From Cyanobacteria bacterium REEB446 (GTDB lineage: Bacteria; Cyanobacteriota; Vampirovibrionia; LMEP-6097), in contig JAGWWP010000005.1 of assembly GCA_018970325.1 (NCBI GenBank), positions 1,594 to 65,593 of the forward strand: 64,000 nucleotides of DNA. The letters run 5' to 3'. The notes under the pieces were generated by a model. The model had not been told where the DNA came from and ran no database searches. It saw only the letters and a list, made by a program, of their open reading frames with translations. Shown here one piece after another: positions 44,386-62,397 of this stretch. Every line of letters begins with the position of its first letter. Position 1 is the stretch's first letter. A program made the translations under genes and the position numbers.

Positions 44386-44411
44386 ATAGAGATTATATCG
44401 TCCAATAAAAG

Positions 44412-45429: not shown

Positions 45430-46256
45430 AAATATTATCAGACCTAAAGTTCAAGACTAGGCAACCGCCTGATAGTAAAAGAAGAATTTTTCTGCTAATT
45501 CTTTTCTGTTTCACTTTTACCATAAGCTCTCTAAATGCCTTACAGGCAGATGATTTCATTATAAAAATCACTGGACCTCATTTAGATAACCTCTCAGCAT
45601 TAAGCATTAAACTTGCTGTAGATCCTAAAAAATACTGTGAGCTTGATAAAGAGATTAATATAAATAGGCAGACTTTCTTTAAGAATGTCGACCCGCAGGG
45701 CTCACTTATTAATGTTTCGTTTAAGACGAGTACAGCTAATCTTCTGAATACTAAAAGCGTCTCTGCTGTAATTAAGGACAGTAATTCAGAAACTATAGAA
45801 ATAAAAGGAAAGCTTAAAAGGCTTAACTATACTGGAAAATTAAGTGCAAAAGTTTTAAGTGCTGAGCTGGTAGCTGATTTCGGTAAAGAGCTGGACAACA
45901 AGCTTATTAGCACTGTGATAAGCATCACCAAAGAAGATGATTTATTACCTTTTTTTGGAATCACGAAAGCCAAAATACTAGGACCTAATCCTAGATTATA
46001 TTCCAAGAAAATGTTTATCAGTATAGGTGATATAGAAACTTATGGTTTTAATTTAGAAAAAAATATCACGAATATGAAAATCAATAATCAGAAAGCGGAT
46101 TTGATTAACAAAAAAATGATAATTGCTAATATCACTCTAGATGAAATACCCGAAAACAGTAAATTGCCTATTATCCTATCTATGATGGTGGCTGGGAAAG
46201 AGGTTAAGAAAAATATTGGGGTTATTGATTTGATAGAATCGGTGGAGTTAAGGTAG
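45426..46256 (+). CDS. hypothetical secreted protein (signal peptide)
   Basis: N-terminal hydrophobic leader (IFLLILFCFTFTISSLNALQA). 4-nt overlap with lpxC. Confidence 0.35.
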   Translation: MKILSDLKFKTRQPPDSKRRIFLLILFCFTFTISSLNALQADDFIIKITGPHLDNLSALSIKLAVDPKKYCELDKEININRQTFFKNVDPQGSLINVSFKTSTANLLNTKSVSAVIKDSNSETIEIKGKLKRLNYTGKLSAKVLSAELVADFGKELDNKLISTVISITKEDDLLPFFGITKAKILGPNPRLYSKKMFISIGDIETYGFNLEKNITNMKINNQKADLINKKMIIANITLDEIPENSKLPIILSMMVAGKEVKKNIGVIDLIESVELR

Positions 46257-46762
46257 GATTGCATCCCAAAGATTCTGGAAGAAAGTTTTATTTGGGTCTA
46301 AGCGACCTAGTTTTTTCTTTTTATAATAAAAGCGAAAGAAAGGATGGATAAGCAAGAAAAGTAGCCATGAAAATGCAATAACCATGGTTGTCACATAATC
46401 TAAATTAGACTCACTCATAAACCTTCTCCTTATTTTCTGAATGGTAGTACCACTCATCTAGAATGTCAATGCTGCGGTAGATGCAAATGATGCCAACTAA
46501 GCTTATGCTAGAAACTATTATGAATTTCAATATACCAATATCTTCAATCCTATAATTAGCATTAGTTAATTCCATAAAAATCATGCTTGCAAAAGAACTT
46601 AATAACCCAAAGCCAATGTATTGAAGAAGATTAGCCCGATGTTTAATAGATTCTGGAAGATCTTTCATTTAAATTAGCTTCGCAAAAATTAGAAAAAATT
46701 TTTAGGGGTCATTTTTCCTCAGAGTTAAAAACTAGAAAATTTTCCAGACTATAATTAGGACT

Positions 46763-47461
46763 ATGGGTGTAAAAACAATATCTTATTTTTTCTCTATTTA
46801 TTTTCAAGACGAATTATCTAATCAAGGTCCTACTTGGAAATCTGAATTTGATATTGCCATTAGGAAAGCTTTAACAAATTTATTTGAAGGGGAGCCAATT
46901 TTGCATCCAGCTCCACCAGCCCTCGGAATTCCAGAAGAAATTATTAATGACATTCCTCTTATTAGCCTAGTGTCTAAAGATAGATTCCACGAATGTAGTG
47001 CTACAAAGAAAAAAATAAATTTTAATTGGACATTGACTAATGATGAACAAAAAGATTTCAATAAACAGAAATCGCATTTCAAAAACTTGTTTGCTTATGC
47101 TAAAAGTTTAGAACTATCAATTCAGCGTATTGCTGTAGTTGCTAATTATTCTACTGATTTAGACAATATCGCAGCCAAACATCTTCAAGGGAAGTTCTTA
47201 AATATAGATCAATCTTTAGATATTCAAGAAGCTACCATACGCTACGTGGAGCTTGTCAATAGAGAAGAACTCAAGATTAATAACATAACGGAATTTTCTG
47301 CAGCTTATAGTATGAAAGAACTTAAGATTAAAAGAGATATTAATACTTATCATTTAACACCTTACAATTTATCTGAAGATAACTTATTTAATATCTTTTC
47401 TGAATTCGTAGATAGAGAATTAACTCAAAGTAAAGTTAAGAGGTTAATTCAAGATGAGTAG
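46763..47461 (+). CDS. hypothetical protein (232 aa)
   Basis: ORF with no recognisable motifs. 8-nt overlap with the next ORF (operon). Confidence 0.3.
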   Translation: MGVKTISYFFSIYFQDELSNQGPTWKSEFDIAIRKALTNLFEGEPILHPAPPALGIPEEIINDIPLISLVSKDRFHECSATKKKINFNWTLTNDEQKDFNKQKSHFKNLFAYAKSLELSIQRIAVVANYSTDLDNIAAKHLQGKFLNIDQSLDIQEATIRYVELVNREELKINNITEFSAAYSMKELKIKRDINTYHLTPYNLSEDNLFNIFSEFVDRELTQSKVKRLIQDE

Positions 47462-48164
47462 CTCTTCCAGTGCTTCAGGTAATTTTGATCAAAATTCACC
47501 AGATCCAGAAAAATTTGCAGTATTACCAGAAGAGATAAAAAAAGGTCTTTCAGAATGGTTCCAAACTGAAGAATTTAAACAATTACCAAAAGAGACAAGA
47601 AATTATTTTTTTAAACGATTCTCGCAAAATGAAAATAAACCACAGCAAAATCTTGAGACACAGACATTCAAAATAGAACAAGATATAAGTGCCTTAAAAG
47701 AAGAGGTTGAAAAATCTAAAAAAACACTTGATGAAAAAATGCAAGAATCTCAAAAAAGACTTGATGAAAAAATTAGAGAATTAGAGCAAAAATTTGAAAA
47801 AACACTTGATAAAAAAATCACAGATCAGCAAACTCAAATTATTGCTCTCTGCGGAATTTTTGTAGCTATCATTGCTTTCGTAACTAATAACGTCACAATT
47901 TTTACTAAAGCAGATAATCTTTATCAAGCATTAGTATTTATGGTTATTTTCTTTATATTAACCGCAGGGATAATTTTAATCAGTTATCAACTATCAAGAC
48001 AAGCAAATAACCAAGTAGATAACAAGGATGTAATCGGAATGCTCATCTTAATCACTGTTATAACCATTTTCTTGATTGTTTTCGCACAGAACTTAGATCA
48101 CATAAAGCTTATATCGAAACAAAAGTTAACTCCACCCCACCTACAACAGATCGTTCTCCAGTAA
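47454..48164 (+). CDS. hypothetical coiled-coil protein with three C-terminal TM helices
   Basis: Ser-rich N-terminus, K/E-rich coiled coil (KTLDEKMQESQKRLDEKIRELEQKFEKTLDKK), then hydrophobic helices. Confidence 0.3.
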   Translation: MSSSSSASGNFDQNSPDPEKFAVLPEEIKKGLSEWFQTEEFKQLPKETRNYFFKRFSQNENKPQQNLETQTFKIEQDISALKEEVEKSKKTLDEKMQESQKRLDEKIRELEQKFEKTLDKKITDQQTQIIALCGIFVAIIAFVTNNVTIFTKADNLYQALVFMVIFFILTAGIILISYQLSRQANNQVDNKDVIGMLILITVITIFLIVFAQNLDHIKLISKQKLTPPHLQQIVLQ

Positions 48165-48214
48165 ATGAACATAAAAAATTACAGCTGAAAGGAAATTGAA
48201 AATATATTGGCGAA

Positions 48215-48370
48215 ACTAGCTCTCAATCTTAAGCTGAGTTTCTAGTGCCTCTAGTTCACGTACTTTCACATGATAGCAGCGGTGTTCAATCCAGAATAGA
48301 CCAATGAGTGCTGGAGCTACAAAAAGAGCTATCTCCAAGATATACTCCCAATCAAGATTTGGTAACTTCA
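48215..48370 (-). CDS. putative small membrane protein (51 aa)
   Basis: ATG preceded by AAGGAG. MKLPNLDWEYILEIALFVAPALIGLFWIEHRCYHVKVRELEALETQLKIES. Below the ORF-track cutoff. Confidence 0.25.
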
Positions 48371-48503
48371 TGAATAACTCCTTTTTCTAATATACTTAAG
48401 CCTCGTAAAATACATTCTATTCCTAGGACAAAAAATAGTCCAGCGATGGCATAGCGATCTAACTTTTCCCCAGCTTAATTCGCACTTTAGTCACCTATTA
48501 ATT

Positions 48504-48537
48504 AATCTGCCATAATATGATTTGGTGAATAATCAAA
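48504..48537 (+). repeat. left copy of a perfect 34-bp direct repeat (AATCTGCCATAATATGATTTGGTGAATAATCAAA) bracketing the hsdRSM-ietAS block
   Basis: Identical 34-mer at 57948-57981. This copy overlaps the hsdR start codon region. Confidence 0.7.
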
Positions 48538-51323
48538 ACCCTGAGCAAAAAACGAGAGACAACATCGATAAGATGCTGGAAACTGCTGGCTGGGTAGTGC
48601 AAGATAAAGATAAAATAGACTGGTCAAATCATAAAGGTATCGCTATTCGAGAGTATTCTACAGATACTGGTCCAGCTGATTATGTTTTATTTATTAATAT
48701 AGATGCTGCCAAATTTCCGATTGGAATAATCGAAGCAAAACCAGAAGATGAGGGTCAAAGAATCAGTATTCATGAGGAACAGGTACTTAGATATGCGGAA
48801 AGCAAGCTCAAATACTGTATCGCTACTGAGCCTATACCTTTTCTCTATATCTCTACGAGCATAAGAACTCTTTTCTTTAATCTTAAAGATCCTAAGCCTC
48901 GTTCTAGAGAGATTTTTAATTTTCATAGACCAGAGACTTTAATAGAATGGTCTCAAGATGAAGGAACCCTAAGATCACGCTTAGAAAATTTACCGCTTTT
49001 ACAGACTGAAGGTTTGCGTGACTGTCAGATTAAAGCGATAAATAATCTTGAGAAATCGTTTAAACAAGCTAAGCCAAAGGCTTTAATCCAGATGGCTACA
49101 GGAAGTGGCAAGACCTTTACTGCTATTACTTTTATTTATCGACTTTTAAAATATGCTAAAGCAAAGAGAATATTGTTTTTAGTTGATACTAAAAACCTCG
49201 GCGAGCAGGCTGAACAAGAGATTAGAAATTATATTCCTCCAGATGATAATAGAACTTTCTCTGAGTTATACACAGTCCAAAGGCTTAAAAATAGTTACGT
49301 TCCACAAGACACGAAGGTTTGCATTAGCACTATACAGAGAATGTACTCTATCTTGAAGGGTGAAGCTTTAGAAGAATCTGCTGAGGATCAGAATCCTAAT
49401 GAGTATGAATTTATAAGTCAAGAAAAAATGAAAGAAGTTATTTATAACTCAAATGCTCCGATTGAAATGTTTGATTTTATTATTATTGATGAATGCCACA
49501 GGTCTATTTATAATCTCTGGAAGCAAGTTCTTGATTATTATGATGCTTTCTTGATTGGTTTAACTGCTACTCCAGACAAAAGAACTTTTGCTTTCTTTAA
49601 TGAAAATGTCGTCAGTGAATATACTCATGAAGAAGCTGTCGCTGATGGCGTAAACGTAGGTTATGACATTTATGTTATTGAAACTGAAATTACTAAACAA
49701 GGCTCGAAAATAAAAGCTAAAGAATATATAGAAAAACGAGATAAGTTATCACGTAAAAAACGCTGGGAGCAGCAAGATGAAGATTTAGAATATAGCTCAA
49801 AGCAGCTTGATAAAGATATAGTAAATCCGAGTCAGATTCGTAATATTATAAAAGCCTTTCGTGATAAGCTATCTGAAATATTTCCTAATCGTAAACAGTC
49901 TAATGATCAAATAGAAGTGCCGAAGACATTAGTTTTCGCTAAAACTGATAGTCATGCTGATGACATTATTTCGATAATTCGGGAGGAGTTCGGAGAAAGA
50001 AACGACTTCTGTAAAAAAATAACTTATAAATCTAAAGAAGACCCTAGCGAAGATCCTAAAAGTATTCTAGCTAGTTTTCGCAATTTATATAATCCAAGAA
50101 TCGCTGTAACAGTAGATATGATCGCTACAGGTACTGATGTTAAGCCGATAGAATGTCTGTTGTTCATGCGTGATGTTAAATCTAGAAACTATTTTGAGCA
50201 GATGAAAGGACGAGGTACGAGAACGCTTGCAGCAGATGATTTAAAACGAATAACACCAAGTGCTAAAACTGGAAAAACGCATTTCGTAATAGTAGATGCA
50301 GTCGGTGTAACTAAATCAGTTAAAACAGATAGTAGGTCACTAGAAAGAAAGAAGACTGTACCATTAAAAGACCTGATGTACAGCATTCTAATGGGTTCTA
50401 AAGATGAAGATGTTTTTCTTTCAGTGGCTAGCAGACTTTCAAGGCTTAATAATGAAATTAGTCCCCAAGAAAAACAAAAATTTCAAGAAATCACTAAGGG
50501 GAAATCTTTAAATACAGTGATACACGAGCTTTTAAATGCATTTGATGCTGATGAGATTGAAATCAAGGCTAGAGAAAGTTTTCAGATAGATTCTCTGAGC
50601 GAACCAAGCGAGGAGCAAAAATCAAAGGCTCAATTAGAGCTAATTAGAATAGCTTCTTCTAGTTTTACTGGGAACTTAAATACTTACATAGAGAATGTAA
50701 GGAGAGAATATGAACAGACTATAGATGTGGTAAATATTGATAAGCTTGAGTTTGCAGGCTGGGATTCACAGGCAAAAGCAGAGAATCATATAAATGAATT
50801 TAAAGATTTTTTAGAAAAACATAAAGATGAGATAATAGCTCTAAGAATCTTTTACAATGAGCCTTATAGATTAAAAGATTTGACTTATAAGATGATAGGA
50901 GAGCTTTATGAAGTTCTTCAGCGAGAAAAACCTCACTTGGCACCGCTATATGTCTATGAAGCTTTTGAAAGGTTTGAAGAAAATAAATCCAATAAACCAG
51001 AGAATCAGCTCACAGCTTTAGTTTCTCTAATCAGAAAGGTTTGCGGCATTGATAAAACCCTTACGGCATTTGATGATGTGGTTAATCGTAATTTTAAAAG
51101 TTGGATTTTCAAGAAACAAGCTGGCTCTTTAAAATTTAATGAAGAACAAATGGACTGGTTAAGAATGATTAAAAGTCATATCACAAGCTCTTTTCATATA
51201 GATAAAGATGATTTTGAATATGCACCATTTGATGCACAAGGTGGTTTAGGAAAAATGCATAAACTTTTTGGGCTGGATGCAGATTCGGTTATTAGTGAGA
51301 TGAATGAGGTATTGGTGGCGTGA
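48522..51323 (+). CDS. hsdR: type I restriction enzyme R subunit
   Basis: N-terminal Mrr-cat-like nuclease region. SF2 helicase motifs I (QMATGSGKTFTA), II (DECHRS) and VI (QMKGRGTR). TTG/GTG start. Confidence 0.9.
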   Translation: MVNNQNPEQKTRDNIDKMLETAGWVVQDKDKIDWSNHKGIAIREYSTDTGPADYVLFINIDAAKFPIGIIEAKPEDEGQRISIHEEQVLRYAESKLKYCIATEPIPFLYISTSIRTLFFNLKDPKPRSREIFNFHRPETLIEWSQDEGTLRSRLENLPLLQTEGLRDCQIKAINNLEKSFKQAKPKALIQMATGSGKTFTAITFIYRLLKYAKAKRILFLVDTKNLGEQAEQEIRNYIPPDDNRTFSELYTVQRLKNSYVPQDTKVCISTIQRMYSILKGEALEESAEDQNPNEYEFISQEKMKEVIYNSNAPIEMFDFIIIDECHRSIYNLWKQVLDYYDAFLIGLTATPDKRTFAFFNENVVSEYTHEEAVADGVNVGYDIYVIETEITKQGSKIKAKEYIEKRDKLSRKKRWEQQDEDLEYSSKQLDKDIVNPSQIRNIIKAFRDKLSEIFPNRKQSNDQIEVPKTLVFAKTDSHADDIISIIREEFGERNDFCKKITYKSKEDPSEDPKSILASFRNLYNPRIAVTVDMIATGTDVKPIECLLFMRDVKSRNYFEQMKGRGTRTLAADDLKRITPSAKTGKTHFVIVDAVGVTKSVKTDSRSLERKKTVPLKDLMYSILMGSKDEDVFLSVASRLSRLNNEISPQEKQKFQEITKGKSLNTVIHELLNAFDADEIEIKARESFQIDSLSEPSEEQKSKAQLELIRIASSSFTGNLNTYIENVRREYEQTIDVVNIDKLEFAGWDSQAKAENHINEFKDFLEKHKDEIIALRIFYNEPYRLKDLTYKMIGELYEVLQREKPHLAPLYVYEAFERFEENKSNKPENQLTALVSLIRKVCGIDKTLTAFDDVVNRNFKSWIFKKQAGSLKFNEEQMDWLRMIKSHITSSFHIDKDDFEYAPFDAQGGLGKMHKLFGLDADSVISEMNEVLVA

Positions 51324-52768
51324 TGGGGCTTATGGTAAGGGATATGACTGAATCATTTCAGTCTCAGATTAATAATTTATGGACAGTTGTTCCATTAGAT
51401 ACAGTTTTGATAAGTCTTGAATCTGGTAAAAGACCGAGGGGGGGAGTTAAAGATATTAAAACTGGCATACCAAGCTTAGGAGGAGAACATTTAAATTCAG
51501 ACGGTGGATTTAAATTTGAAAATATTCGCTATATTCCAGAAGAATTTGCTCTTAATATGCTGAGAGGACAAATTAAACAAGATGATATCTTAATAGTCAA
51601 AGACGGGGCTACTACAGGCAAGGTTTCATTTGTTAATAGAGACTTCCCTTATAGTAACGCGGTTGTCAATGAACATGTATTCATATGTCGCATCTCAAAA
51701 TTCATAGATCCTAAGTTTATTTTTTACTTTCTTTTCAGCGAGACAGGCCAAAAAAGAATACTAGAAAATTTTAAAGGTTCTGCACAAGGTGGAATCAACT
51801 CTTCATTCTCAGCTGAAACATTAATTTCTTTAGCCCCCCTCAAGGAACAAAAACGCATAGTTAATAAAATCGAAGAACTCTTATCAGAATTAGATCACGC
51901 CGTAGAAAGTTTTAAAAAAATACAACAGCAATTAAAAATCTATCGCCAAGCGGTTTTGAAGGCTGCTTTTGAGGGGAAGTTGACGGAGGAATGGAAAAAA
52001 TTTAATTCACAGAACATAAATTTAGATCCTTCTCGTAGTTTTGTCGAAATTAAAAAACTTGGCGATCTTATAGAAGAGCCTAAATATGGTACATCTAAAA
52101 AATGCTCTTATGAAAATGGGAATCTTGGAGTGCTAAGAATACCTAATCTTGTTGATTATAAAATTGACTTAGATGATTTAAAAAAAGCTGAATTTAATGA
52201 ATCAGAGAAAGAAGCTTATTCACTCAAAAAAGGAGACCTCCTTATAATTCGTTCAAATGGTAGCCCATCTTTAGTTGGAACTGCGAGCATTATTGATTCT
52301 CACAGTTCAAAATGTCTCTTCGCTGGATATTTAATACGTCTTCGGTGTTTAAATTCTTTAAATCCTAATTATCTTTTATATTGTTTACATTCATATTCTG
52401 TGAGGAATCAAATTGAACTTCAATCAAGGTCAACGAGTGGAGTTCACAATATTAATTCTCAAGAGATTAAAAGCCTTTTAATTCCCTACTGCTCTCTCGA
52501 AGAACAAAACCAAATAATCCAAGAAATCGAATCCCGCCTATCCATCTGTGATGAACTAGAAAAGACTATAGAACAGAATTTAATTCTAGAAAAATCATTA
52601 CGCCAAAGCATTTTAAAGAAAGCTTTTGAGGGGAAATTAGTCCCACAAGATCCAAATGATGAGCCTGCAGAGCTTTTATTAGAGAAGATTAAGCTCGAAA
52701 AAGAGAAATTAGCTAAATTAACTAATTCAAGCAAAACTAAGACTAAAAGGGAGAAAGTCACAGCATGA
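51320..52768 (+). CDS. hsdS: type I restriction-modification specificity subunit
   Basis: Two target-recognition domains, each followed by the conserved repeat (QAVLKAAFEGKL and QSILKKAFEGKL). ATGA overlap with hsdR and hsdM. Confidence 0.85.
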   Translation: MMGLMVRDMTESFQSQINNLWTVVPLDTVLISLESGKRPRGGVKDIKTGIPSLGGEHLNSDGGFKFENIRYIPEEFALNMLRGQIKQDDILIVKDGATTGKVSFVNRDFPYSNAVVNEHVFICRISKFIDPKFIFYFLFSETGQKRILENFKGSAQGGINSSFSAETLISLAPLKEQKRIVNKIEELLSELDHAVESFKKIQQQLKIYRQAVLKAAFEGKLTEEWKKFNSQNINLDPSRSFVEIKKLGDLIEEPKYGTSKKCSYENGNLGVLRIPNLVDYKIDLDDLKKAEFNESEKEAYSLKKGDLLIIRSNGSPSLVGTASIIDSHSSKCLFAGYLIRLRCLNSLNPNYLLYCLHSYSVRNQIELQSRSTSGVHNINSQEIKSLLIPYCSLEEQNQIIQEIESRLSICDELEKTIEQNLILEKSLRQSILKKAFEGKLVPQDPNDEPAELLLEKIKLEKEKLAKLTNSSKTKTKREKVTA

Positions 52769-54240
52769 ACGTCAGTTCAATCATACAAAAAATCTGGAAT
52801 TACTGTACCGTATTAAGGGACGATGGTTTAAGCTATGGTGACTATCTAGAACAGCTTACCTATCTACTCTTCATCAAGATGGCTGATGAATACTCAAAGC
52901 CTCCTCATAATAGAGAAACTAATATCCCAGAAAAATATAATTGGAAAAGTTTAACTAAGATAAGTGGTTCTGACCTAGAAGTTCATTATGTGGATTTATT
53001 ACTTAATCTAGGCAAAGCTAAAGGCATACTAGGACAGATTTTCACTAAATCGCAGAACAGAATACAAGACCCAGCGAAACTCTATAAACTAATCCAGATG
53101 ATAGATAGTGAAGAATGGGTAATTATGGGAGCTGATGTTAAGGGAGATATCTATGAAGGTCTTTTAGAAAAGAATGCCGAAGACACGAAGAGCGGAGCAG
53201 GGCAGTACTTCACTCCTAGAGCTTTAATTAAAGCCATGGTTGAGTGCATTAGACCTGAACCCATGAACACTATTGCAGATCCAGCTTGTGGTACGGGTGG
53301 ATTTTTTCTTGGAGCCTATGATTTTATAGCTAATAACTATAAACTTGATAAACAGGAAAAGGAGTTCCTAAAAAAACATACTTTTGCTGGTAACGAAATA
53401 GTTGCTAACACTCGCAGACTTGCTTTGATGAATCTCTTTTTACATAATATTGGAGATTTAACGGGAGATTCAGTAATTTTTCCTCAGGATGCTCTTATCG
53501 CAGATAGCGGCCAGCGATTTGATTATGTCCTTGCTAATCCACCATTCGGAAAGAGAAGTAGTATGACTTTCACTAACGATGATGGAGATCAAGAGAAAGA
53601 AGATTTAACTTATAATCGCCAAGATTTTTGGACTACCACTTCTAATAAGCAGTTAAATTTCGTTCAGCATATAAAGACCATACTTAAAACTACAGGTAAG
53701 GCTGCCATCGTAATTCCAGATAATGTTTTATTTGAAGGTGGTGCTGGTGAGATAATTAGAAAAAAATTACTTGAAACCACTGATCTGCACACGATTTTAA
53801 GGCTACCTACAGGTATTTTTTATGCTAATGGAGTTAAGGCAAATGTAATTTTCCTTGATAACAAACCAGCTGCCAAAGAGCCTTGGACTAAAGAAATTTG
53901 GTTTTATGATTATCGGACGAATATTCATCATACGAAGAAAAAAGATCCTCTGCGATTTGAACACTTAAAAGATTTTATTCAGTGTTACAATCCAACCAAT
54001 CCACATCAGCGTAAAGAGACATATTCAGAAATCAATCTAGAGGGCAGATGGCGTAAATTTACTTATAATGAGATCATCTCTAGAGATAAAACTAGTTTAG
54101 ATATTTTCTGGTTAAAAGATAAGAGTTTAACTGACTTAGAGAATCTCCCAGAGCCAGATTTGCTTGCTAATGAAATTATAGAAAATTTAGAGGCAGCCCT
54201 CGGAAGCTTTAAAGATATGGCTAGAATATTAAACTCTTAA
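52765..54240 (+). CDS. hsdM: type I restriction-modification N6-adenine DNA methyltransferase
   Basis: HsdM N-terminal domain. AdoMet motif I (DPACGTGGF) and catalytic NPPFG. Confidence 0.9.
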   Translation: MNVSSIIQKIWNYCTVLRDDGLSYGDYLEQLTYLLFIKMADEYSKPPHNRETNIPEKYNWKSLTKISGSDLEVHYVDLLLNLGKAKGILGQIFTKSQNRIQDPAKLYKLIQMIDSEEWVIMGADVKGDIYEGLLEKNAEDTKSGAGQYFTPRALIKAMVECIRPEPMNTIADPACGTGGFFLGAYDFIANNYKLDKQEKEFLKKHTFAGNEIVANTRRLALMNLFLHNIGDLTGDSVIFPQDALIADSGQRFDYVLANPPFGKRSSMTFTNDDGDQEKEDLTYNRQDFWTTTSNKQLNFVQHIKTILKTTGKAAIVIPDNVLFEGGAGEIIRKKLLETTDLHTILRLPTGIFYANGVKANVIFLDNKPAAKEPWTKEIWFYDYRTNIHHTKKKDPLRFEHLKDFIQCYNPTNPHQRKETYSEINLEGRWRKFTYNEIISRDKTSLDIFWLKDKSLTDLENLPEPDLLANEIIENLEAALGSFKDMARILNS

Positions 54241-56831
54241 GTCCTAGTCCTCGTTCTAGAATTAATATGAGAGTGAATTTCTGTGTAAATATCTATATCT
54301 GAGTCTATCTCTAATGTGATAGCTAATACATACGCAATCACATCAGAGTTTCTTTTTGAGTTCCCTTTTTGAGAACAAACAGAAATCTTTGCTAGATTAT
54401 TGGAGGAGTCTATAGCAAGAATAGCTTTTCCTTTTTTTAGCTCATAAATAGAATGTTTACAGGTATTTAACATTACATTGCCTGCTTGCTCAGAGCTAAT
54501 CTGTTCTTCAAAAGAACCATCCTTACTAATTTTAATATCTAGCTTACTTTGCTGATAATCACTGGTTTCTGGACTAATATCACTAAACCAAACCAAGGTA
54601 GAAATCAATCTTATATTGCTAGACAATGACTGATTTCTAAATTCTGAAGGCAAAGGAATTTCGTAGTCATGCTGAGTCGCAGCAGATATTTTATTACAAG
54701 CAATAAATAACACAGAATGATTAAAAGCACTGATAGATCTTTCAAAATCAGTCTTACCATAGCCATGAAAGCGAGCTAACTCCCTAGGCTTTTTAAAGTT
54801 ACCATCAGAATGATTAGCACTAGCGTTCCGATGTATAAATTGTAAAAAATCAGGATCATGCCAACTAGAGTGTATAAGAAGATTTTTAATCAATAAAGCA
54901 TCATATTCTTTGTCTGGGAATATCTCTGTTGATAAATAATCATTCTCTAAGAGTTGCTCATAGATTCTAATTGCATTATTAGTCGCTAATGCTGTAGCAT
55001 AACTAGTTCCACAGCCTCGTGCCTGTTTATTTAGATCTCCAGATTTAGCAGTAAAAGCATGTTTAAGCCCGAATTTATTACTAGCAGGATTTTCGCTTTC
55101 TAATTTAGAACTAAAGAAAAGCTTTTTATAGACTGAACTCCCTCCTGAAAACAATAGTTCAGGCTTAATAGATTTCTTCACTCCTAAGCCTACTCTAGAA
55201 TAAGCTGCACAATACTTATCATTTCGATATAAAATACCATTTTCTTGATTAGTGATTTTCTTTTCTATTTCAGAGTCGTCGTATTCTGTAGCTCCTATAC
55301 AGAGAGAGTTTACAGATTCTGCGGGTGAAATAATTTTCAGATTATTGAGATCCTTTCTCTTGCTACTTAAGACCACACTAAATTTCTCTTCATCTGAAAG
55401 CCTTATGAACTCTTCTTTATCACAATCTAAAGATAAAGCAGCATTATTACCAGCACTAATTAAAAATAGAACTTTATGTTTATATGATAAAAAATCTATC
55501 ATTTTAGCTAAAGGTGATATTCTTCTTGCTAAGTACGGTCTATAAAGATCTCCTAAAGAAAAATTAATTACTCTAACAGATTCCTTTTCTTTAAAAAGCA
55601 TTTCTACTGCGTCATACACAAGCTTTATAAACAGCTTATCATTTGGGATTATCTCCCTATCACCAGAGGAAAGCATAATTGGACAGTGCAATATTTTAGA
55701 ATTAATCCTCTCATCATTTTTATAAGTACCATTAATAACAATCGAACTCACGGCAGTACCATGAAATCTTTTATCCGCAGGATACTTAGCTTCAAAGTCA
55801 AATAAATCTAGAACATCTATAAAATTTTTAATATCATTGTGATTCTGTAAAGGCATTCCATCTAATATTGCAGCATAAGACTTTTCATATTTAGGTTTAT
55901 GTGTTTTAGATGATTCTAAATCACTATCAGGGCTTTGCTTTCTAAGCATCGCTTGTGGTGAAGGATTAATAAACATCACAGAATCAGCTTTTAAAAGCTG
56001 CATTCCTGTAAAATTAGATTTCTCCTTAAGTTTTAAAATAAGTTCTTTTTTAACAGAAGCTTTTAAGCCATGATAATTAATTTCCTCACAAACAAAGATA
56101 TCTAGGAGCTTTCCACCATCTAATTCAAGTATCTCTTTAATTCTATTTTCGGCTTCTTCTCTTCTATGTGGATCTCTGTGAAACCATAACTCAATCTCGA
56201 TAAAGAAGTCTTCGTGATCCAAATTAAGACCTTCTGTTTGTAAAACCCAGTCTTGAAGCTGCTCTTCATTCTCTATTCGATCATTTTCTGACCATTCTCT
56301 TATGTCTAATAAATATTTAAAGGCATCTCTAAATTTGGTGTAATTCCTTGGTAACTCCTCCCCTTTTTCATATTTTTGCCATAAGCGAATAAAAGTCTTA
56401 AATCCTTTCTCAGTATAGAACACACAGAAAGCTTTACTTTTCCCCACTGTAATTTTATTATTTGACTTTTTATCACAATATTCTAAAAACTCTGGGATTT
56501 CATAATTATCTTTAATTAACTGTGCGAAATATTCACAGCCTTTTATTTTATTAAATGCATTAATTAAATCCTCTAGCTTATCATCTAAAAATTCTAAAAC
56601 TAATACCTTCCCTAAATCATCTCCACTCAATCCAGCTTCATCAGTGACCCTCAGCGTTTCAAAATCTCTTAAGATCGCTTCAGAACGCTCTTTAAACCAA
56701 ATGGCCTGCTTTTCTTTGGATGATAATGTATATTTTTCCTTACCACCACGCCCGCTGCCCTTATAGGCTAACTCAGAATTACTAATAAGATAGATAGGTC
56801 TGCGTCTTTTATTAGTCTTGAGCCTCTCCAT
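54237..56831 (-). CDS. S8 subtilase-family peptidase with ~330-aa uncharacterised N-terminal domain (IetS-like)
   Basis: Catalytic triad contexts AILDGM (Asp), HGTAVSS (His) and GTSYATALA (Ser), plus oxyanion SAGNNA. 11-nt gap from the upstream AAA+ ATPase gene on the same strand. Confidence 0.55.
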   Translation of the reverse strand: MERLKTNKRRRPIYLISNSELAYKGSGRGGKEKYTLSSKEKQAIWFKERSEAILRDFETLRVTDEAGLSGDDLGKVLVLEFLDDKLEDLINAFNKIKGCEYFAQLIKDNYEIPEFLEYCDKKSNNKITVGKSKAFCVFYTEKGFKTFIRLWQKYEKGEELPRNYTKFRDAFKYLLDIREWSENDRIENEEQLQDWVLQTEGLNLDHEDFFIEIELWFHRDPHRREEAENRIKEILELDGGKLLDIFVCEEINYHGLKASVKKELILKLKEKSNFTGMQLLKADSVMFINPSPQAMLRKQSPDSDLESSKTHKPKYEKSYAAILDGMPLQNHNDIKNFIDVLDLFDFEAKYPADKRFHGTAVSSIVINGTYKNDERINSKILHCPIMLSSGDREIIPNDKLFIKLVYDAVEMLFKEKESVRVINFSLGDLYRPYLARRISPLAKMIDFLSYKHKVLFLISAGNNAALSLDCDKEEFIRLSDEEKFSVVLSSKRKDLNNLKIISPAESVNSLCIGATEYDDSEIEKKITNQENGILYRNDKYCAAYSRVGLGVKKSIKPELLFSGGSSVYKKLFFSSKLESENPASNKFGLKHAFTAKSGDLNKQARGCGTSYATALATNNAIRIYEQLLENDYLSTEIFPDKEYDALLIKNLLIHSSWHDPDFLQFIHRNASANHSDGNFKKPRELARFHGYGKTDFERSISAFNHSVLFIACNKISAATQHDYEIPLPSEFRNQSLSSNIRLISTLVWFSDISPETSDYQQSKLDIKISKDGSFEEQISSEQAGNVMLNTCKHSIYELKKGKAILAIDSSNNLAKISVCSQKGNSKRNSDVIAYVLAITLEIDSDIDIYTEIHSHINSRTRTRT

Positions 56832-56842
56832 AATTACAAATT

Positions 56843-57826
56843 TTAAAATTTAGCTTTCACAAAATTCTTAGATTGTTTAATAATATCTATAAAAGCTTTA
56901 ATATCTTTCTTAGACAGAGATTGATTCTTATTCAGTTTAATAAAATAACTACGTCTAACACTATCACAGAACTCTTTTAAATCCGAGAAAGAAAAATTAT
57001 TCAGCATTCTGCTCAAATAGCTAAATTGATACAAAAAATCAATGTCAAAACGCTTAGAATAAGATTCAAGATATTTTATAATTTCTAATTCTGATGGGGC
57101 ATCTAACTCTAATGTAATCTGAAACCTCCTAGTCATAGCGTGATCTAGAGCTTCAGGATGATTAGTAGCAGCAATCAGAATCGTATTAGATGATAATTTA
57201 TCAATATTAGTAAGTAACAGATTAACTATTCTTTTAACTTCCCCAACTTCATTCTTGTCACCACGTGATTTAGAAACGGTATCAAATTCATCAAAGAATA
57301 AAACACAATTGGAATTATATATTGAGGAAAATAATTTTTTAATGCGACTAAGGCTTTCACCTAAAAGGCTGTTAATGAGGACTTCATAATTTACATGATA
57401 TAAAGGTACTGCCAACTCATAAGCCATAGCCTCAGCCAAAGAAGTTTTTCCATTACCTGGTTTGCCTACTAAAAGTATTTTATTTCTAGGATTAATACCA
57501 TTGGACCTTAAATAGTCTTTCATAGAATACTCTTCAAGAAAGTCAGAGACAATTTGCAAATTAATATTAGAGAGTATTAATTCACCAAGCTCAATCTCAG
57601 GTTTAATAACAGTAAAAAAATCACTATTTACACCAGTTTGATTTTCAAGGAACTCAAACTTTTTTGTTTCTGTTACATTTAGTGCTTTTTTTAGACGTTC
57701 CGCAAGTGTATGATGCTGTTTAAACTCTTCCTCTTTGATTATTGACTGTGCGATTTCAACAAATAAATCAAAGTTCTTTTCAGAACCAGCTTTAATAAGA
57801 TTTGTCAATAGATCTGTTCGTGCCAT
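56843..57826 (-). CDS. AAA+ ATPase (classic CDC48/FtsH-type AAA domain; IetA-like)
   Basis: Walker A GKPGNGKTS, Walker B VLFFDEFD and second region of homology ATNHPEALDHAMTRRF. Confidence 0.6.
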   Translation of the reverse strand: MARTDLLTNLIKAGSEKNFDLFVEIAQSIIKEEEFKQHHTLAERLKKALNVTETKKFEFLENQTGVNSDFFTVIKPEIELGELILSNINLQIVSDFLEEYSMKDYLRSNGINPRNKILLVGKPGNGKTSLAEAMAYELAVPLYHVNYEVLINSLLGESLSRIKKLFSSIYNSNCVLFFDEFDTVSKSRGDKNEVGEVKRIVNLLLTNIDKLSSNTILIAATNHPEALDHAMTRRFQITLELDAPSELEIIKYLESYSKRFDIDFLYQFSYLSRMLNNFSFSDLKEFCDSVRRSYFIKLNKNQSLSKKDIKAFIDIIKQSKNFVKAKF

Positions 57827-57947
57827 AAGTACATGAATATATTTAGTATAACTTTAGATAGGTAAAATATGAGGCTTTCTTTATGCCTATATCGTATTTT
57901 ACTTATACTCAAGGGAGGGACTTATTAATAGAATTAGCTCATCTTCC

Positions 57948-57981
57948 AATCTGCCATAATATGATTTGGTGAATAATCAAA
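57948..57981 (+). repeat. right copy of the 34-bp direct repeat, 37 nt upstream of kdsC
   Basis: Perfect match to 48504-48537. Contains -10-like CATAAT/TAATAT. Confidence 0.7.
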
Positions 57982-58017
57982 GCTCAAAATTAAGCTATTA
58001 AATCACAAAAGAAAACT

Positions 58018-58539
58018 ATGTTTGAAAACATCTCAGAAAGACTAAAAGAACGTGCTCAGAAAATAAAAATGATCGGCTTCGACGTAGACGGCGTTCTGAC
58101 AGATGGTTCGCTTTATATAGCTAAAGATGGTGAATCTGTAAAAAGATTCTTCGCCTTAGATGGACATGGCATAAAACTCGCTCAGAACTTCGGTTTAACT
58201 GTGGTTATAGTCTCTGCTCGTAAAAGTGAGCAGACTATCAATCGCTGTACTGATCTGGGTGTCAAAGAAATTCACACGGGTGTAGAAAACAAACTGAGCT
58301 GCGTTCAAGATTTACTAAAACGCTATGAACTTAATTATGATGAGTTCGCCTTTATCGGTGATGACAGCATAGATGTTCCAGTCTTAGAACTAGTGGGCTT
58401 AGCTGCCTGTCCAGCAGATTCACATTATTCAGTATTTAAGCATATTCATTACATTACTGAGCGTAAAGGCGGACAGGGAGCGGCTAGGGAATTTATTGAT
58501 TTGATTCTTGCCATGCAGGGGAAGATACCAGTAGCTTAA
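58018..58539 (+). CDS. kdsC: 3-deoxy-D-manno-octulosonate 8-phosphate phosphatase (HAD-IIIA)
   Basis: HAD motif I FDVDGVLTDG. Motifs GDDSIDVPV and GGQGAAREF match KdsC. Confidence 0.8.
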   Translation: MFENISERLKERAQKIKMIGFDVDGVLTDGSLYIAKDGESVKRFFALDGHGIKLAQNFGLTVVIVSARKSEQTINRCTDLGVKEIHTGVENKLSCVQDLLKRYELNYDEFAFIGDDSIDVPVLELVGLAACPADSHYSVFKHIHYITERKGGQGAAREFIDLILAMQGKIPVA

Positions 58540-59126
58540 TCACACTCTAGCATTGAAATTAAAAGATTTAATTCTGGTATCGTTTTACGCTTTTCGTCGA
58601 GAATCTCCTTTGTTAGATTATCTCGATAGAAACTTAGCTCATCTTTACCTTTAATAATTCCACCTACAGCATTTTTTAAAGTCTTTAGGTCACTAGGTAG
58701 TGCTTTACCCAGCACTTTTAAAATGAAAGACTCTACAGATCGTGGCTGAGAGACAATTAAAGTAGGTCTCTTTTTATTCTTTGCATTAAAATTAGTTTGC
58801 AGTTTAGCCAAAGGGGTATTATTAAAGCTTTCTATGCGTTCCTCTGATATATTCCAAGCTTGAGCAAGTGATTTTTTATTTTTAATTTCTTTATCCTCGT
58901 CTAGCCAAACAAAACATCTATCACGATCATTATTACAAATCGCTGTATTAATTAGTGTATCTGCGTCACCGCCACCACTACAACGACCTTTATCAAGACT
59001 GACGGAAATAGATATACTATTTTTATCTAAGTAAAGTTCTTCTAATATTTTAAAAAAGAATCTCTCCCTTTGTCCTTCTAGGACAGCGTAGAGGGTAATT
59101 TTACGTTTACGTTGCTTTCTCCCCAC
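58536..59126 (-). CDS. RloB-like / DUF4276-like small protein (TOPRIM-like), partner of upstream AAA_21 ATPase (AbiLii-like)
   Basis: 196 aa. N-terminal ITLYAVLEGQRERFFF resembles the (I/V)xCEGxTE...YF signature of RloB/DUF4276. 2-nt gap to the upstream ATPase gene. Confidence 0.45.
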   Translation of the reverse strand: MGRKQRKRKITLYAVLEGQRERFFFKILEELYLDKNSISISVSLDKGRCSGGGDADTLINTAICNNDRDRCFVWLDEDKEIKNKKSLAQAWNISEERIESFNNTPLAKLQTNFNAKNKKRPTLIVSQPRSVESFILKVLGKALPSDLKTLKNAVGGIIKGKDELSFYRDNLTKEILDEKRKTIPELNLLISMLECD

Positions 59127-59128
59127 GC

Positions 59129-60352
59129 TTAAAACCCTCTATTTAACCAGTCTATATCAGGTACACCACCGTAAGTGCCGCTTAAATATTTTTGAGCATA
59201 GTTTTCATCATTACGAACTCCTTCTACTTCATCTAAACGATATATCTCAGTCGTCAAATCCTCTTTATTTTTTTCAACAATAAATATCTGCGTTTTAGTA
59301 AGTTCTTTCAGTAATAGCGCTTGATGTGTACTGAAGAGGATTTGAGCATTATATTTATTTATTTTTTTATTCATAAATAGAGAAAGTATTTTCTGAATCA
59401 AGTGGGGATGTATATTTGTCTCTATTTCATCAATCACGATAAGTCCACCTTCTTCTAGGACAGGGATTATTTTTAAAAATAAATTAAACGCCGTTCTAGT
59501 CCCATGAGATTCATCATGGAGGAATAGATCAAATTCAGCTCCAGTGAGTGTTTTATGTCTAAGGCAGAGTATCTTTTTATTCGTATCTTGTAGGTCTAGG
59601 AAAAAATGATCGCCTATCCCTATATCTAAACTCTTCATAAGTTTAATAGTCTTATCCTCTAATTTCGAATCTTGATTTTGATTTTGGATTAAGTGACGTT
59701 CAGCAGCAGATGGATAGGAGCTAATACTAGACTGGTTAATAGATAAATAAGAGCGCTTAAAAAAAAGGATTTTGGGTAAATATCCAGTATTTAAAAGGCT
59801 AGAAAAAATTGGGACAGTTAAACAACGACTTAAAAAACGCTCTTTATCTGATTTATTTAAGTTAAGTTCTGTTGAAATACTCAGATCAAGCTTTTCACCA
59901 TGTCTTGATAAGCTGAAAATTTTTTTAAATCTAGTATTAGTTTTTTTCTCCAATACTTCATTAAGAATGAATGGTCCATTCAAAACGAGTTTGTAACGAT
60001 ATAAATCTTGTTCATTATAAAACTCTATTGTGAAGCAAGACTCTTTATCTTGATGTAAAGCATGAGCTTTGTATCCTCCTATGCCTTGAGAGTAATCATA
60101 AGAAGAACCGATTAAAGGTGGTACTTTAAGATACGAATCATTTATCCAAGAAATTAAAAATGATAGCCCCTTAAGTATATTAGATTTACCAGAGCCATTG
60201 GCTCCCACCAAACCTGCGATAAGAGTAAAATTCTGTGACCCCACTACAGAAAAGGATTCATTTAAACAGTCTTTTTTAGAAACCTCTAAGGATACGCTCT
60301 GTGGCTCAAGCCCAATACTATAAAAATTAGACACTGTAAAAGATTTGAGCAT
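59129..60352 (-). CDS. AAA_21-type (ABC/OLD-like) ATPase (AbiLi-like)
   Basis: Walker A LVGANGSGKSN near the N-terminus. Walker B/D-loop-like LIVIDEIETNIHPHL near the C-terminus with a long helical insert between, as in AAA_21 abortive-infection ATPases. Confidence 0.65.
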   Translation of the reverse strand: MLKSFTVSNFYSIGLEPQSVSLEVSKKDCLNESFSVVGSQNFTLIAGLVGANGSGKSNILKGLSFLISWINDSYLKVPPLIGSSYDYSQGIGGYKAHALHQDKESCFTIEFYNEQDLYRYKLVLNGPFILNEVLEKKTNTRFKKIFSLSRHGEKLDLSISTELNLNKSDKERFLSRCLTVPIFSSLLNTGYLPKILFFKRSYLSINQSSISSYPSAAERHLIQNQNQDSKLEDKTIKLMKSLDIGIGDHFFLDLQDTNKKILCLRHKTLTGAEFDLFLHDESHGTRTAFNLFLKIIPVLEEGGLIVIDEIETNIHPHLIQKILSLFMNKKINKYNAQILFSTHQALLLKELTKTQIFIVEKNKEDLTTEIYRLDEVEGVRNDENYAQKYLSGTYGGVPDIDWLNRGF

Positions 60353-60458
60353 TATCCCTTCATTTTAACGATATTTTGTTATTTTTCCACTAATTTGAAC
60401 AAAATAGTTTAAATCTAGTAAAATCAGCCCTCGGCAAGAATGCTAAAATCATAAACCT

Positions 60459-60998
60459 ATGCAAATCAAAGGTAAAGTTCTAAAAGTCCTAAAGTCAAAC
60501 ATAGACACCGATCAAATCATCCCAGCAAGACACCTTACAGGGATTAGCAAAACTGGTTTAGGGAAATTTTTATTTGAAGATCTACCGAATAATCCACTAG
60601 ATGATATTGAGCATGAGGGTGCGAAAATTATTCTTACTTTAGAAAACTTCGGCTGCGGCTCTTCACGTGAGCATGCGGTTTGGTCTATTTTAGACAGAGG
60701 CTTTAATGCTGTTATCGCTGTAAATTTCGCAAGAATTTTTGAAGAGAACTGCTATAACAATGGCGTAGTGCCGATTAAGCTAAGTGAAGCAGAAATACAA
60801 GAAATAGATACAGCTTTAACTAATGATACTGAAGTTGAAATAGATGTCATAGAACAGGTTTTAAGTGTCGGAGCTAAAACTTATAAATTCAATTTAGATG
60901 AATTAAAAAAAGAATTTATTCTTAAAGGTGGCTTTATGAAGTTTTTAGATGCTAAAGTACCTAAAATTAAAGAGTGGGCTTTAGCTGAGAAGAGTTAA
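60459..60998 (+). CDS. leuD: 3-isopropylmalate dehydratase small subunit-like (LeuD / aconitase swivel domain)
   Basis: ILTLENFGCGSSREHA and NFARIF match the LeuD signature. No leuC is adjacent. Confidence 0.7.
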   Translation: MQIKGKVLKVLKSNIDTDQIIPARHLTGISKTGLGKFLFEDLPNNPLDDIEHEGAKIILTLENFGCGSSREHAVWSILDRGFNAVIAVNFARIFEENCYNNGVVPIKLSEAEIQEIDTALTNDTEVEIDVIEQVLSVGAKTYKFNLDELKKEFILKGGFMKFLDAKVPKIKEWALAEKS

Positions 60999-61769
60999 AA
61001 AATTATCTAGGCTTAAAGTCCTTAGCTCTAATGAATCCTGCACAAAATTTTCTAAATCAGAATGCACTTCCTTAAAATTAGTTTCTTCAAGACGCTTTAT
61101 TAAGCATGTTTGAAGACCTGCCATATCTAGTTTAGATTTTTTACCAGTACTTTGAGCGATAGCATTATTTAGTAAGACTAAATTAGGTTTAACTTTTTTA
61201 GTTAAATACCACATTAAATCATAGTAGTCTCTACCCTTGGTATATTTACGATGTAAAATAGCATGAAGCTTACCAGCATATAAACTAGGTAAATCATAAT
61301 GCTTAATGCCAAAGAAACTCTTTTGTATAGTGTATTCTAAGTTTGCTCCTTTTGGTGGATTCATATCCAATTCGAGTTTTATATATAATTTCTGTTCAGG
61401 TAGAGAAGTTAAGCCTAGCTCATAGAGAAGCTTTGCAAATTTTAATTGAGCTATGTAAACATTATTCTTAGTCTTTGAATTTATTTTCAGATTAATATTT
61501 AATAGTAAAAAACGCTTGCAGAGCTGGTCTAACATATTTATGAAATCAAAATCTTTTGCATCAATTAAACTAAAATCTAAATCTTCTGAAAAGCGATTTA
61601 AATCATATAAAATTCTCAGAGCAGTCCCACCAACAAAAGCAATATTCTTTGAAAATCCCTGCTGATCTATAATTTTCAGGGTTTGAATTTGAATAATCTC
61701 CCTTAGATAATTAAACTTTTCTTCAGTAGTAGAATATTTTTCTATTTGATTTTTTAATAAACTAAGCAT
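60981..61769 (-). CDS. AbiEii/AbiGii-family nucleotidyltransferase toxin (DUF1814)
   Basis: IAFVGGTALRILYDLNRFSEDLDFSL is the hallmark GG-TAL...RFSEDLDF motif of type IV TA nucleotidyltransferases. Confidence 0.75.
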   Translation of the reverse strand: MLSLLKNQIEKYSTTEEKFNYLREIIQIQTLKIIDQQGFSKNIAFVGGTALRILYDLNRFSEDLDFSLIDAKDFDFINMLDQLCKRFLLLNINLKINSKTKNNVYIAQLKFAKLLYELGLTSLPEQKLYIKLELDMNPPKGANLEYTIQKSFFGIKHYDLPSLYAGKLHAILHRKYTKGRDYYDLMWYLTKKVKPNLVLLNNAIAQSTGKKSKLDMAGLQTCLIKRLEETNFKEVHSDLENFVQDSLELRTLSLDNFLTLLS

Positions 61770-62397
61770 TTTTTAAAATCCTTTTTAAAACCACAATAGC
61801 CTGAGAGATTTTTTTCATATTAAATAAGCTGTCTAATTTCTTTAGTCGTGAGGCTTTCAAAATTTCCAGATTCTGTAATCTTAAATTTTCTTCAAAAAAA
61901 TCTTCATCAATGTTCTGATTTGCTTTAACTTTAAAGTAAATATAATCTAGAAGAGCTTTTTCAGGATAGGCAATTTTATAAGCATTACCAAATTCATCTA
62001 TTTGATGAATAAAATAGTCAAATAGGCTGGGTTTGATATGTTTGTAATTAAAGCTCGTTAAGTCATTTGTAAAAGTTTTAGTTTTACTAGTACTAACTGA
62101 ACTCACTTGAAAAACCCGCTCAGGGATTAATCTATAAAAACTCATAGCAGATTCTAAACTAATATATGAATTATCACCGTAGAGCAGCGAAGCCACATAA
62201 AAATTTGAAAATAATTTATTTTTCTCTAAACCCAAATAAGCATATAAACCTTTCTTTAACTGCATAACATAACCCTGTTGAATCCAGTTCTGAATCTGCC
62301 TGCGTAAAGTTTCTCGATCATAGCCAAGCAACTCCATGCTCTGCATAGTAAAAATGCGATTTTTTACGCTTAATCGGTGAAAATCTTCGAACTTCAT
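61762..62397 (-). CDS. AbiEi-like antitoxin / transcriptional regulator
   Basis: 8-nt overlap with the toxin gene. N-terminal winged-helix-like region (ETLRRQIQNWIQQGYVMQLKKGLYA). The track start (62415) is a TTG; the ATG at 62395-62397 is the likelier start. Confidence 0.55.
   Translation of the reverse strand: MKFEDFHRLSVKNRIFTMQSMELLGYDRETLRRQIQNWIQQGYVMQLKKGLYAYLGLEKNKLFSNFYVASLLYGDNSYISLESAMSFYRLIPERVFQVSSVSTSKTKTFTNDLTSFNYKHIKPSLFDYFIHQIDEFGNAYKIAYPEKALLDYIYFKVKANQNIDEDFFEENLRLQNLEILKASRLKKLDSLFNMKKISQAIVVLKRILKNA

Follow-up and report, generated by a model that had tools for sequence, protein, structure and literature searches.

The DNA analysed here, a window of 64,000 nucleotides from contig JAGWWP010000005.1 of Cyanobacteria bacterium REEB446, carries a defence block directly upstream of kdsC, the envelope gene for KDO (3-deoxy-D-manno-octulosonate) 8-phosphate phosphatase. 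The block comprises the type I restriction-modification (R-M) genes hsdR, hsdS and hsdM (hsdRSM) and the IetS/IetA pair (IetSA), and it is bracketed by a perfect 34-bp direct repeat. The locus is a clear and fairly ordinary defence island, gained and lost by recombination without an integrase of its own. From sequence conservation, we conclude that the 34-mer is best read as the native core promoter of kdsC (-10 and start region) rather than as a foreign attachment (att) site. With moderate confidence, we propose that the island was joined to this promoter once, by illegitimate recombination, and that the second promoter copy keeps kdsC expressed. The proposal builds on direct observations: the repeat itself, its conservation 5′ of kdsC, three haplotypes of the interval, a left joint common to the filled haplotypes, the position of the hsdR start and a tract of single-nucleotide polymorphisms (SNPs) in kdsC.

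Both copies of the repeat, AATCTGCCATAATATGATTTGGTGAATAATCAAA, are exact and lie on the forward strand, with starts 9,444 bp apart (Table 1). They form the sole long exact repeat in 40000-64000, and sequence identity between them ends sharply on both sides of the 34-mer. No third copy is present in the window with up to three mismatches allowed, and shuffled sequences gave no matches; the perfect bracketing repeat reported in the initial annotation is thus an exact and unique pair. That annotation also advised looking for the 34-mer elsewhere. Searching metagenome and viral collections through its 25-nt core returned three metagenome matches, all from this locus, and none from viral contigs, so the element is not a common motif. 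Several other readings of the repeat were rejected: it has no hairpin or dyad symmetry (z = 0.04), Rfam gives only three tRNAs in the window and hence no known RNA element at the repeat or leader, and the C at repeat position 31 is no marker of cargo origin, as near-isogenic and other empty sites also carry it. No inverted repeat was found at the block edges (48538 and 57947).

The identity of the element is indicated by its conservation. The compared sequences, designated L001 onward, comprise about 60 loci or contigs, all from metagenome assemblies; relatives were found by a KdsC-based scan of GTDB genomes and are metagenome-assembled genomes of Caenarcaniphilales (Melainabacteria). A conserved core, AATCTGCC(TT)ATAATATGAyyTGGTrA, stands directly 5′ of kdsC in L005-L010, and the element is kept immediately 5′ of kdsC in 10 related genomes, the KdsC proteins of the relatives being 58-99% identical. 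When the kdsC upstream regions are aligned, the invariant columns fall mostly inside the 34-mer, and in L010 the element occupies the entire 40-nt gap between the stop codon of the upstream gene and the kdsC ATG. The -10 hexamer, CATAAT here and TATAAT in distant relatives, bears out the earlier mention of -10-like hexamers in the repeat. At the left copy, a promoter consensus scan identifies TAGTCA-17-CATAAT (48488-48516), with the -35-like hexamer in native sequence that is common to the empty, hsdRSM-only and full haplotypes and is also found in L006. The right copy lies upstream of kdsC as annotated, at a distance of 36 nt from the ATG at 58018 rather than 37 nt. The right copy and leader additionally encode an 11-codon upstream open reading frame (ORF; 57966-58001, LVNNQSSKLSY*) that begins at the same TTG/GTG as hsdR. 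It occurs in empty sites and is probably not functional, because it is missing in L007.

The interval between orf276 and kdsC exists in four states: empty, hsdRSM only, full block and short leader. The ancestral gene order, lpxC-orf276-kdsC-leuD, is seen in L009 and L010. Empty sites, whose existence in relatives the initial annotation had predicted, consist of the left flank up to 48503, one 34-mer, the 36-nt leader and kdsC (L005, L024, L046/47/50/54 and L045/48/51/52), with L007 as a diverged form; those in L005, L024 and L046/47/54 come from long-k assemblies. The contigs L045/48/51/52, from k=31 assemblies in which no k-mer covers the whole 34-mer, are near-isogenic with the window (99.87% identity over 38217-48537 and 99.47% over 57948-64000). 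Their two flank alignments overlap by exactly one 34-mer and exactly 9,444 bp are missing, and they keep the other accessory genes of the window, AbiL, AbiE and a 232-aa ORF. Besides the window, L025/26/28/29 and others have the full block, as does L027+L049; the block junctions are backed by long-k ENA assemblies, the right one in L028 and the left one in L049. Among the source samples, SRR31802148, SRR31802071 and ERZ28594515 contain the full block, and SRR31802144 and SRR24204713 the empty allele. In the short-leader state, the element abuts the kdsC ATG (L006, L008-L010).

The hsdRSM-only state (L003, L004, L022/23 and L043/44) has the same left flank, the exact 34-mer and the same joint, 34-mer|ACCCTGAG. 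It is without IetAS, the right 34-mer copy and the native leader. The last 12 codons of its hsdM differ (ADMRKLADIL*), and 28 nt containing AAGGA separate hsdM from the kdsC ATG. This state is widespread, and the block, which the initial annotation had treated as one inserted island, is therefore not an indivisible unit.

The left joint records how the cargo became attached to its host. The genes hsdR, hsdS and hsdM form one operon with 4-nt gene overlaps and constitute a type I R-M system (defence systems were called with PADLOC models, and domains with Pfam and NCBIfam profiles). HsdR is full-length compared with homologs of 917-934 aa and carries ResIII (E = 8e-39) and EcoEI_R_C (E = 2e-37) domains; beyond its own 90% cluster, its closest relatives are only about 65% identical. 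Translation of hsdR can start only at TTG 48522 or GTG 48525, both within the left repeat as the initial annotation had noted, since an in-frame TAA at 48513-48515 bars any start further upstream. The host promoter element therefore supplies the hsdR start codon. The idea that the duplicated promoter fragment would also drive hsdR is plausible, given the -10/-35-like pair at the left copy.

HsdR homologs open with M(x)NQ(N/T)PEQKARD, and the two residues before xPEQ are NQ in 75 of 114 homologs and NK in 29. The final 7 nt of the repeat, AAT CAA A, encode N-Q in the hsdR frame. This suggests that the joint formed in a 7-nt microhomology (AATCAAA) shared by the target and the 5′ end that hsdR originally had; an in-frame fusion favoured by selection would yield the same N-Q outcome. 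In hsdR, the full and hsdRSM-only haplotypes form sister clades 2.3% apart (97.2-97.8% identity between them, at least 98.1% within), and the hsdR tree was rejected as a means of telling which filled haplotype came first, two sister clades being uninformative in this respect.

Within the same cassette, the two target-recognition domains of hsdS (51327-51833 and 51988-52495) vary by strain, giving lengths of 482, 483, 474, 494 and 469 aa. Identity in the conserved parts, central and flanking, is 95-97%, and the segment 51834-51987 alone aligns to other strains. Such variable domains within a conserved frame indicate, at the level of sequence, that specificity is being reshuffled inside the hsd cassette.

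The second half of the block consists of IetS and IetA, adjacent on the same strand with an 11-nt gap and predicted to form an IetAS system. Everything between the repeats is accordingly defence-related, as first annotated, the AAA-ATPase/S8-protease pair of that description being IetA and IetS. IetS converges on hsdM, and their stop codons overlap by 4 nt (TTAA). From 54183 onward, the hsdM 3′ end is an IetS-linked allele with the C-terminus GSFKDMARILNS, which fits the family consensus xSF[RK], whereas the hsdRSM-only C-terminus does not. At an unrelated locus, L041/L042, a 70%-identical IetAS is followed by a 94-aa hsdM 3′-end remnant whose convergent stop overlaps by the same 4 nt and whose C-terminus resembles that of the full haplotype; nucleotide homology to the window spans 54005-57867 at 77% identity. 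Because the hsdM-IetS-IetA linkage recurs there, the composite predates the split of the two filled haplotypes. No source was found in any of the 60 loci for the 80-nt spacer between the IetA upstream region and the right repeat.

Some further features of this module were observed. The L041 hsdM remnant is 92% identical to the hsdRSM-only hsdM, while L041 IetS is only 73-79% identical to that of the window. The TTAA convergent overlap, in which two TAA stops share bases, recurs in hsdM/IetS (54237-54240), kdsC/AbiLii (58536-58539) and the L041 remnant/IetS (12580-12583). Distant IetAS homologs (about 29% identity) do not adjoin type I R-M genes, and a general rule placing IetAS beside type I R-M was rejected. 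In one full-block strain (L027+L049), IetS is broken by an insertion sequence (IS; L027 7615-7751, L049 1-139) whose flanks overlap by 9 nt (window 55022-55030), which suggests a target duplication of 9 bp. L041 ends (16382-16506) in a 95% identical copy of this IS end, and the left flank of L049 contains an IS1595-family transposase; the window has none of these IS parts.

The present distribution of these alleles reflects exchange between strains. Compared with the near-isogenic empty strain, the 2.6 kb to the left of the block differ by one SNP (48481) and one 1-nt indel (48135), and a dense SNP tract begins in the leader just to the right of the block (Table 1). Neither repeat-mediated deletion nor fresh insertion would make such a tract, and the alleles have therefore been swapped by homologous recombination. 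Recombination between homologous flanks, here with a crossover inside kdsC, passes the empty, hsdRSM-only and full alleles from strain to strain, and their current presence and absence reflects this allelic exchange rather than a fresh insertion. The kdsC 5′ haplotype of the window is common to the full-haplotype contigs L001, L002 and L028, and in L027 the linked tract stops sooner. Between lineages, hsdR and hsdM are 97-98% identical, against 90-95% for the flanking core genes, and this low divergence beside more diverged flanks is consistent with allelic exchange.

Table 1. Features of the kdsC-proximal defence island in the 64,000-nt window.
Feature	Position	Strand	Remarks
Native sequence 5′ of the kdsC promoter element	48464..48503	+	-35-like TAGTCA at 48488-48493; stays with the left copy
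Left 34-mer copy	48504..48537	+	-10 CATAAT at 48511-48516; hsdR start and codons 1-5
hsdR, type I restriction subunit, 933 aa	48522..51323	+	ResIII, EcoEI_R_C and SWI2_SNF2 domains
hsdS, specificity subunit	51320..52768	+	Methylase_S in two stretches; NF007278, E = 5e-64
hsdM, methyltransferase	52765..54240	+	N6_Mtase, E = 1e-69, and HsdM_N
IetS, S8 protease of IetAS	54237..56831	-	PADLOC E = 4.8e-186 over 4-850/855; Peptidase_S8
IetA, AAA ATPase of IetAS	56843..57826	-	PADLOC E = 2.9e-102 (1-305/330); AAA domain
IetA upstream region, 41 nt	57827..57867	-	90% identical to L041; homology stops at 57867
80-nt spacer, IetA upstream region to right 34-mer	57868..57947	.	Full-haplotype contigs only
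Right 34-mer copy	57948..57981	+	Sole promoter-like element directly 5′ of kdsC; upstream context is cargo DNA
Native 36-nt kdsC leader	57982..58017	+	97% identical to L005, L024 and L027; also in L045 and L046
Recombination tract	57987..58383	.	20 SNPs relative to the near-isogenic empty strain, then 1 SNP in the next 2.4 kb
kdsC, KDO 8-phosphate phosphatase	58018..58539	+	TIGR01670, 163.5 bits against a cutoff of 107

The proposed origin combines these elements. An integrase-less composite of hsdRSM and convergent IetS/IetA would have been joined once, directly 3′ of the kdsC element, by illegitimate recombination probably guided by the 7-nt microhomology. In this event hsdR would have lost its own 5′ end, and it would now use the host promoter, the host TTG/GTG and four to five host codons. 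As the IetSA pair opposes kdsC, read-through would be blocked and kdsC cut off from its promoter; the right 34-mer, placed before the native leader, may thus act as a second promoter copy that restores kdsC expression. The hsdRSM-only haplotype would then derive from this structure by loss of IetSA together with the right copy and the leader, so that kdsC would become the fourth gene of the hsd operon behind hsdM, with AAGGA as its own ribosome-binding site. The parts that we infer are the promoter activity of both copies, the microhomology joint, the occurrence of only one original insertion and the reason why selection kept the duplication. The left joint that the hsdRSM-only and full haplotypes have in common counts for a single insertion, and the hsdM-IetSA linkage, being older than the haplotype split, favours insertion of the whole composite with later loss of IetSA. 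The initial annotation's target duplication holds in that part of the native kdsC promoter region stands duplicated in the repeat. Candidate routes to the 34-bp duplication are template switching, homology-facilitated illegitimate recombination to the left of the promoter, a Campbell-type crossover or a merger of lineages. The composition of the block, which the initial annotation had proposed to compare with the flanks, shows a weak AT shift, its GC content at third codon positions being 0.22-0.29 against 0.30 ± 0.03 in the core; its codon usage, at most weakly shifted, lies inside the core range.

Several observations weigh against this reading. For the right copy, which is without the native -35 region, the consensus scan called no full -35/-10 promoter, and the promoter activity of both copies is predicted from conservation and consensus match. 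The near-isogenic empty sites rest on k=31 contigs; these are credible, as they cross the repeat without branching and differ from the window in their kdsC haplotype. For the 62 nt at the 3′ end of the hsdRSM-only haplotype, made up of the aberrant homologous hsdM C-terminus and the 28 nt that follow, no source was found in the 60 loci; as the full haplotype offers none, the hsdRSM-only haplotype is no simple deletion derivative of it, and the order of events is correspondingly less certain. L003 has both flanks in common with the full haplotype, a pattern that conversion either way would give. No donor sequence of the cargo was found that would show its right end before insertion.

A two-step origin speaks to some of these points and is a possible, if doubtful, alternative. 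It would place hsdRSM downstream of the promoter in one lineage and, independently, an hsdM-remnant-IetSA module upstream of it in another, empty-site lineage, with the two later merged by crossovers in hsdM at about 54183 on the left and at or within kdsC on the right, so that the 34-mers would be the promoter copies of two lineages rather than a target duplication. The widespread hsdRSM-only haplotype, in which kdsC would still be expressed by read-through from hsdM, is what such a history would leave behind, and the hsdM-remnant-IetSA module does stand alone in L041/L042. The alleles switch abruptly at 54183, L003 being identical to the window up to 54182; both repeat ends lie just outside the conserved promoter core, and homologous recombination is demonstrably frequent at the locus. 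However, neither the about 60 loci nor the collection scans contained the required intermediate, in which IetSA would precede a single 34-mer, and three events are needed rather than two. Moreover, it is the hsdRSM-only haplotype that has the hsdM C-terminus aberrant for the family, and the hsdM-IetS junction predates the haplotype split.

Site-specific integration, the other route named in the initial annotation beside microhomology, is improbable. In this scheme, the 34-mer would be an att core and a circular hsdRSM-IetSA element would have been integrated by a tyrosine or serine recombinase acting in trans, leaving attL and attR. The perfect flanking direct repeats and the precise single-copy empty site fit it, and closing the block on itself gives a dense arrangement of genes that includes a divergent promoter region and overlapping convergent stops. 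Logan contigs, 9,479 nt long, that end within both repeats also seemed to fit; as evidence of a circle they were rejected, as they end 30 nt into each repeat, where k=31 graphs break. Against integration, no integrase or transposase was found, in line with the first annotation, in the block or elsewhere among the about 35 window ORFs scanned (44-62.4 kb and 20 others, with about 16 ORFs in 14-42 kb left out). Furthermore, the 34-mer has neither dyad symmetry nor structure, and as the conserved kdsC promoter it is also present in genomes that never had the island. The metagenome and viral collections hold no second 34-mer locus and no attP-like form was found, while megablast gave no phage or plasmid match to the block. 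The hsdRSM-only haplotype would have attL without attR, a single left joint is shared, and the differences between strains come with flanking SNP tracts typical of homologous recombination. Of the two routes first suggested, only microhomology is favoured, by the hsdR joint.

Least credible is an ancestral block whose empty sites are secondary deletions: recombination between 34-bp direct repeats can mediate precise deletion and the empty allele of L045 is set apart from the window by precisely the block and one repeat copy, but the distant relatives L007-L010 have a single element and no block, intramolecular deletion would not make the 20-SNP kdsC tract of the near-isogenic empty strain, and hsdR and hsdM diverge less between lineages than the flanking core genes do.

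A broader and quite speculative extension, to which we give little weight, would make the kdsC element a landing pad for the integrase-independent or trans-acting capture of promoterless, start-less defence cassettes, joined in frame behind it, with the promoter copied for the displaced gene. If true, such a landing pad would play the part that attI/Pc has in integrons, without IntI, and the same process would shuffle AbiL, AbiE and IetAS cassettes between slots, with joints at TTAA stops.

The surroundings of the island are themselves variable. The initial annotation had described the flanks as housekeeping DNA, and this is correct for kdsC on the right; the immediate left flank, 46257-48503, consists of strain-variable ORFs of unknown function, and AbiL and AbiE pairs lie beyond kdsC. 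In the flanks, core genes are interspersed with other defence cassettes. The AbiL-like pair (58536-60352, reverse strand; AbiLi PADLOC E = 1.5e-67, with a 196-aa partner) directly follows kdsC, and an AbiEii/AbiEi pair (60981-62415) follows leuD. The orf276-kdsC slot holds nothing, unknown ORFs, hsdRSM or hsdRSM+IetAS; the kdsC-leuD slot holds nothing, AbiL, an ankyrin-repeat (Ank) protein or a 314-aa ORF. Conserved core flanks with cargo that differs by genome characterize a core defence hotspot, and this is the arrangement found here.

On the left, two ORFs of unknown function, of 232 aa and 236 aa, occupy 46763-48164. They are swapped for three other ORFs in L004, L043 and L049, and are missing in L005, L009 and L010. 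The 236-aa ORF encodes a coiled-coil protein with a transmembrane C-terminus, has 33/45-nt repeats at 47710-47818, and is lengthened to 248 aa in L045 by the 1-nt indel at 48135. Further breakpoints in the left flank lie at 48212, 48406 and 48464. A 51-aa ORF, MKLPNLDWEYILEIALFVAPALIGLFW..., at 48216-48371 on the reverse strand, 132 nt left of the repeat, is exactly conserved in at least 39 index blocks from both empty and full haplotypes and has no Pfam or NCBIfam family match.

To the right, the kdsC-leuD slot has the AbiL pair in the window and in L006 and lacks it in L004 and L007. An AbiL pair 70-78% identical to it is located in L043 (4109-5922) between a DUF748 gene and tRNA-Met/lpxC instead. 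The joints of the AbiL insertion in the window overlap by only a 3-nt AAT, and the AbiL stop overlaps the kdsC stop in TTAA. Other cargo fills the neighbouring slots in L046/L047/L050/L054 and in L043 (16470-18830): an unknown ORF of 314-325 aa or an ankyrin-repeat protein of 786 aa in the kdsC-leuD slot, and SoFic with a transpeptidase in place of AbiE after leuD. Elsewhere in the window, a HipA-family toxin kinase gene (13724-14905, reverse strand; HipA_C E = 5e-44) lies among housekeeping genes.

Core defence hotspots have been described in Pseudomonas aeruginosa, where no obvious mobile-element signature was seen and transfer by homologous recombination in the flanks was proposed and left open (PMC10250203). 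As in these hotspots and in hotspots of horizontal gene transfer (PMC5635113), variable cargo lies between lpxC-orf276, kdsC and leuD, and no hallmarks of a single mobile-element class were found in the window. The flank transfer that was proposed for P. aeruginosa (PMC10250203) is directly visible here as a SNP tract. In contrast, several separate intergenic slots lie within a few kb of one another here, a much smaller scale, and the cargo sits between promoter and ATG, where hsdR has captured the promoter and 34 bp of it are duplicated. This locus also differs in its host, an uncultured Melainabacteria lineage.

Integrase-mediated islands and prophages with attL and attR likewise have perfect flanking repeats and a precise single-copy empty site. 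However, this locus has no integrase among the scanned ORFs and does not lie at the 3′ end of a tRNA or transfer-messenger RNA (tmRNA) gene, its repeat is a host promoter element, and one of its haplotypes is without the right repeat. Homology-facilitated illegitimate recombination (PMC3240628 and studies of naturally competent species that it cites), which combines a homologous anchor with a microhomology end, could explain the AATCAAA joint and the clean boundaries; in its classical form it usually deletes recipient DNA, whereas 34 bp are duplicated here. As with integron cassettes, hsdR lacks a promoter and start codon of its own and relies on a resident element, and in the hsdRSM-only haplotype the host kdsC is the last gene of the cargo operon. 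Unlike integrons, the locus has no IntI, attI or attC and records one insertion event at its joint. Target-duplicating transposons produce duplications of 2-15 bp, compared with the 34 bp here, where neither a transposase nor terminal inverted repeats were found. In Escherichia coli, IetAS co-localizes with type III R-M (10.1101/2022.08.21.504612); the adjacent ATPase and protease again stand beside an R-M system here, in this case next to a type I hsdM with a convergent 4-nt stop overlap.

How defence islands that lack an integrase are built, and how they move between core genes, is a question posed by core defence hotspots. The locus displays three stages of this process side by side in near-identical strains of uncultured Caenarcaniphilales. 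The first would be the illegitimate joining of a restriction gene to the promoter and start codon of its host. The second would be the rescue of the displaced host gene, in two ways, by promoter duplication or by incorporation into the defence operon. The third is the spread of the alleles by homologous recombination, seen as a SNP tract. The locus also displays a conserved physical link of IetAS to type I hsdM. Its value is that of a worked example that leaves current concepts unchanged, with promoter capture, promoter duplication and visible recombination tracts as its instructive details.

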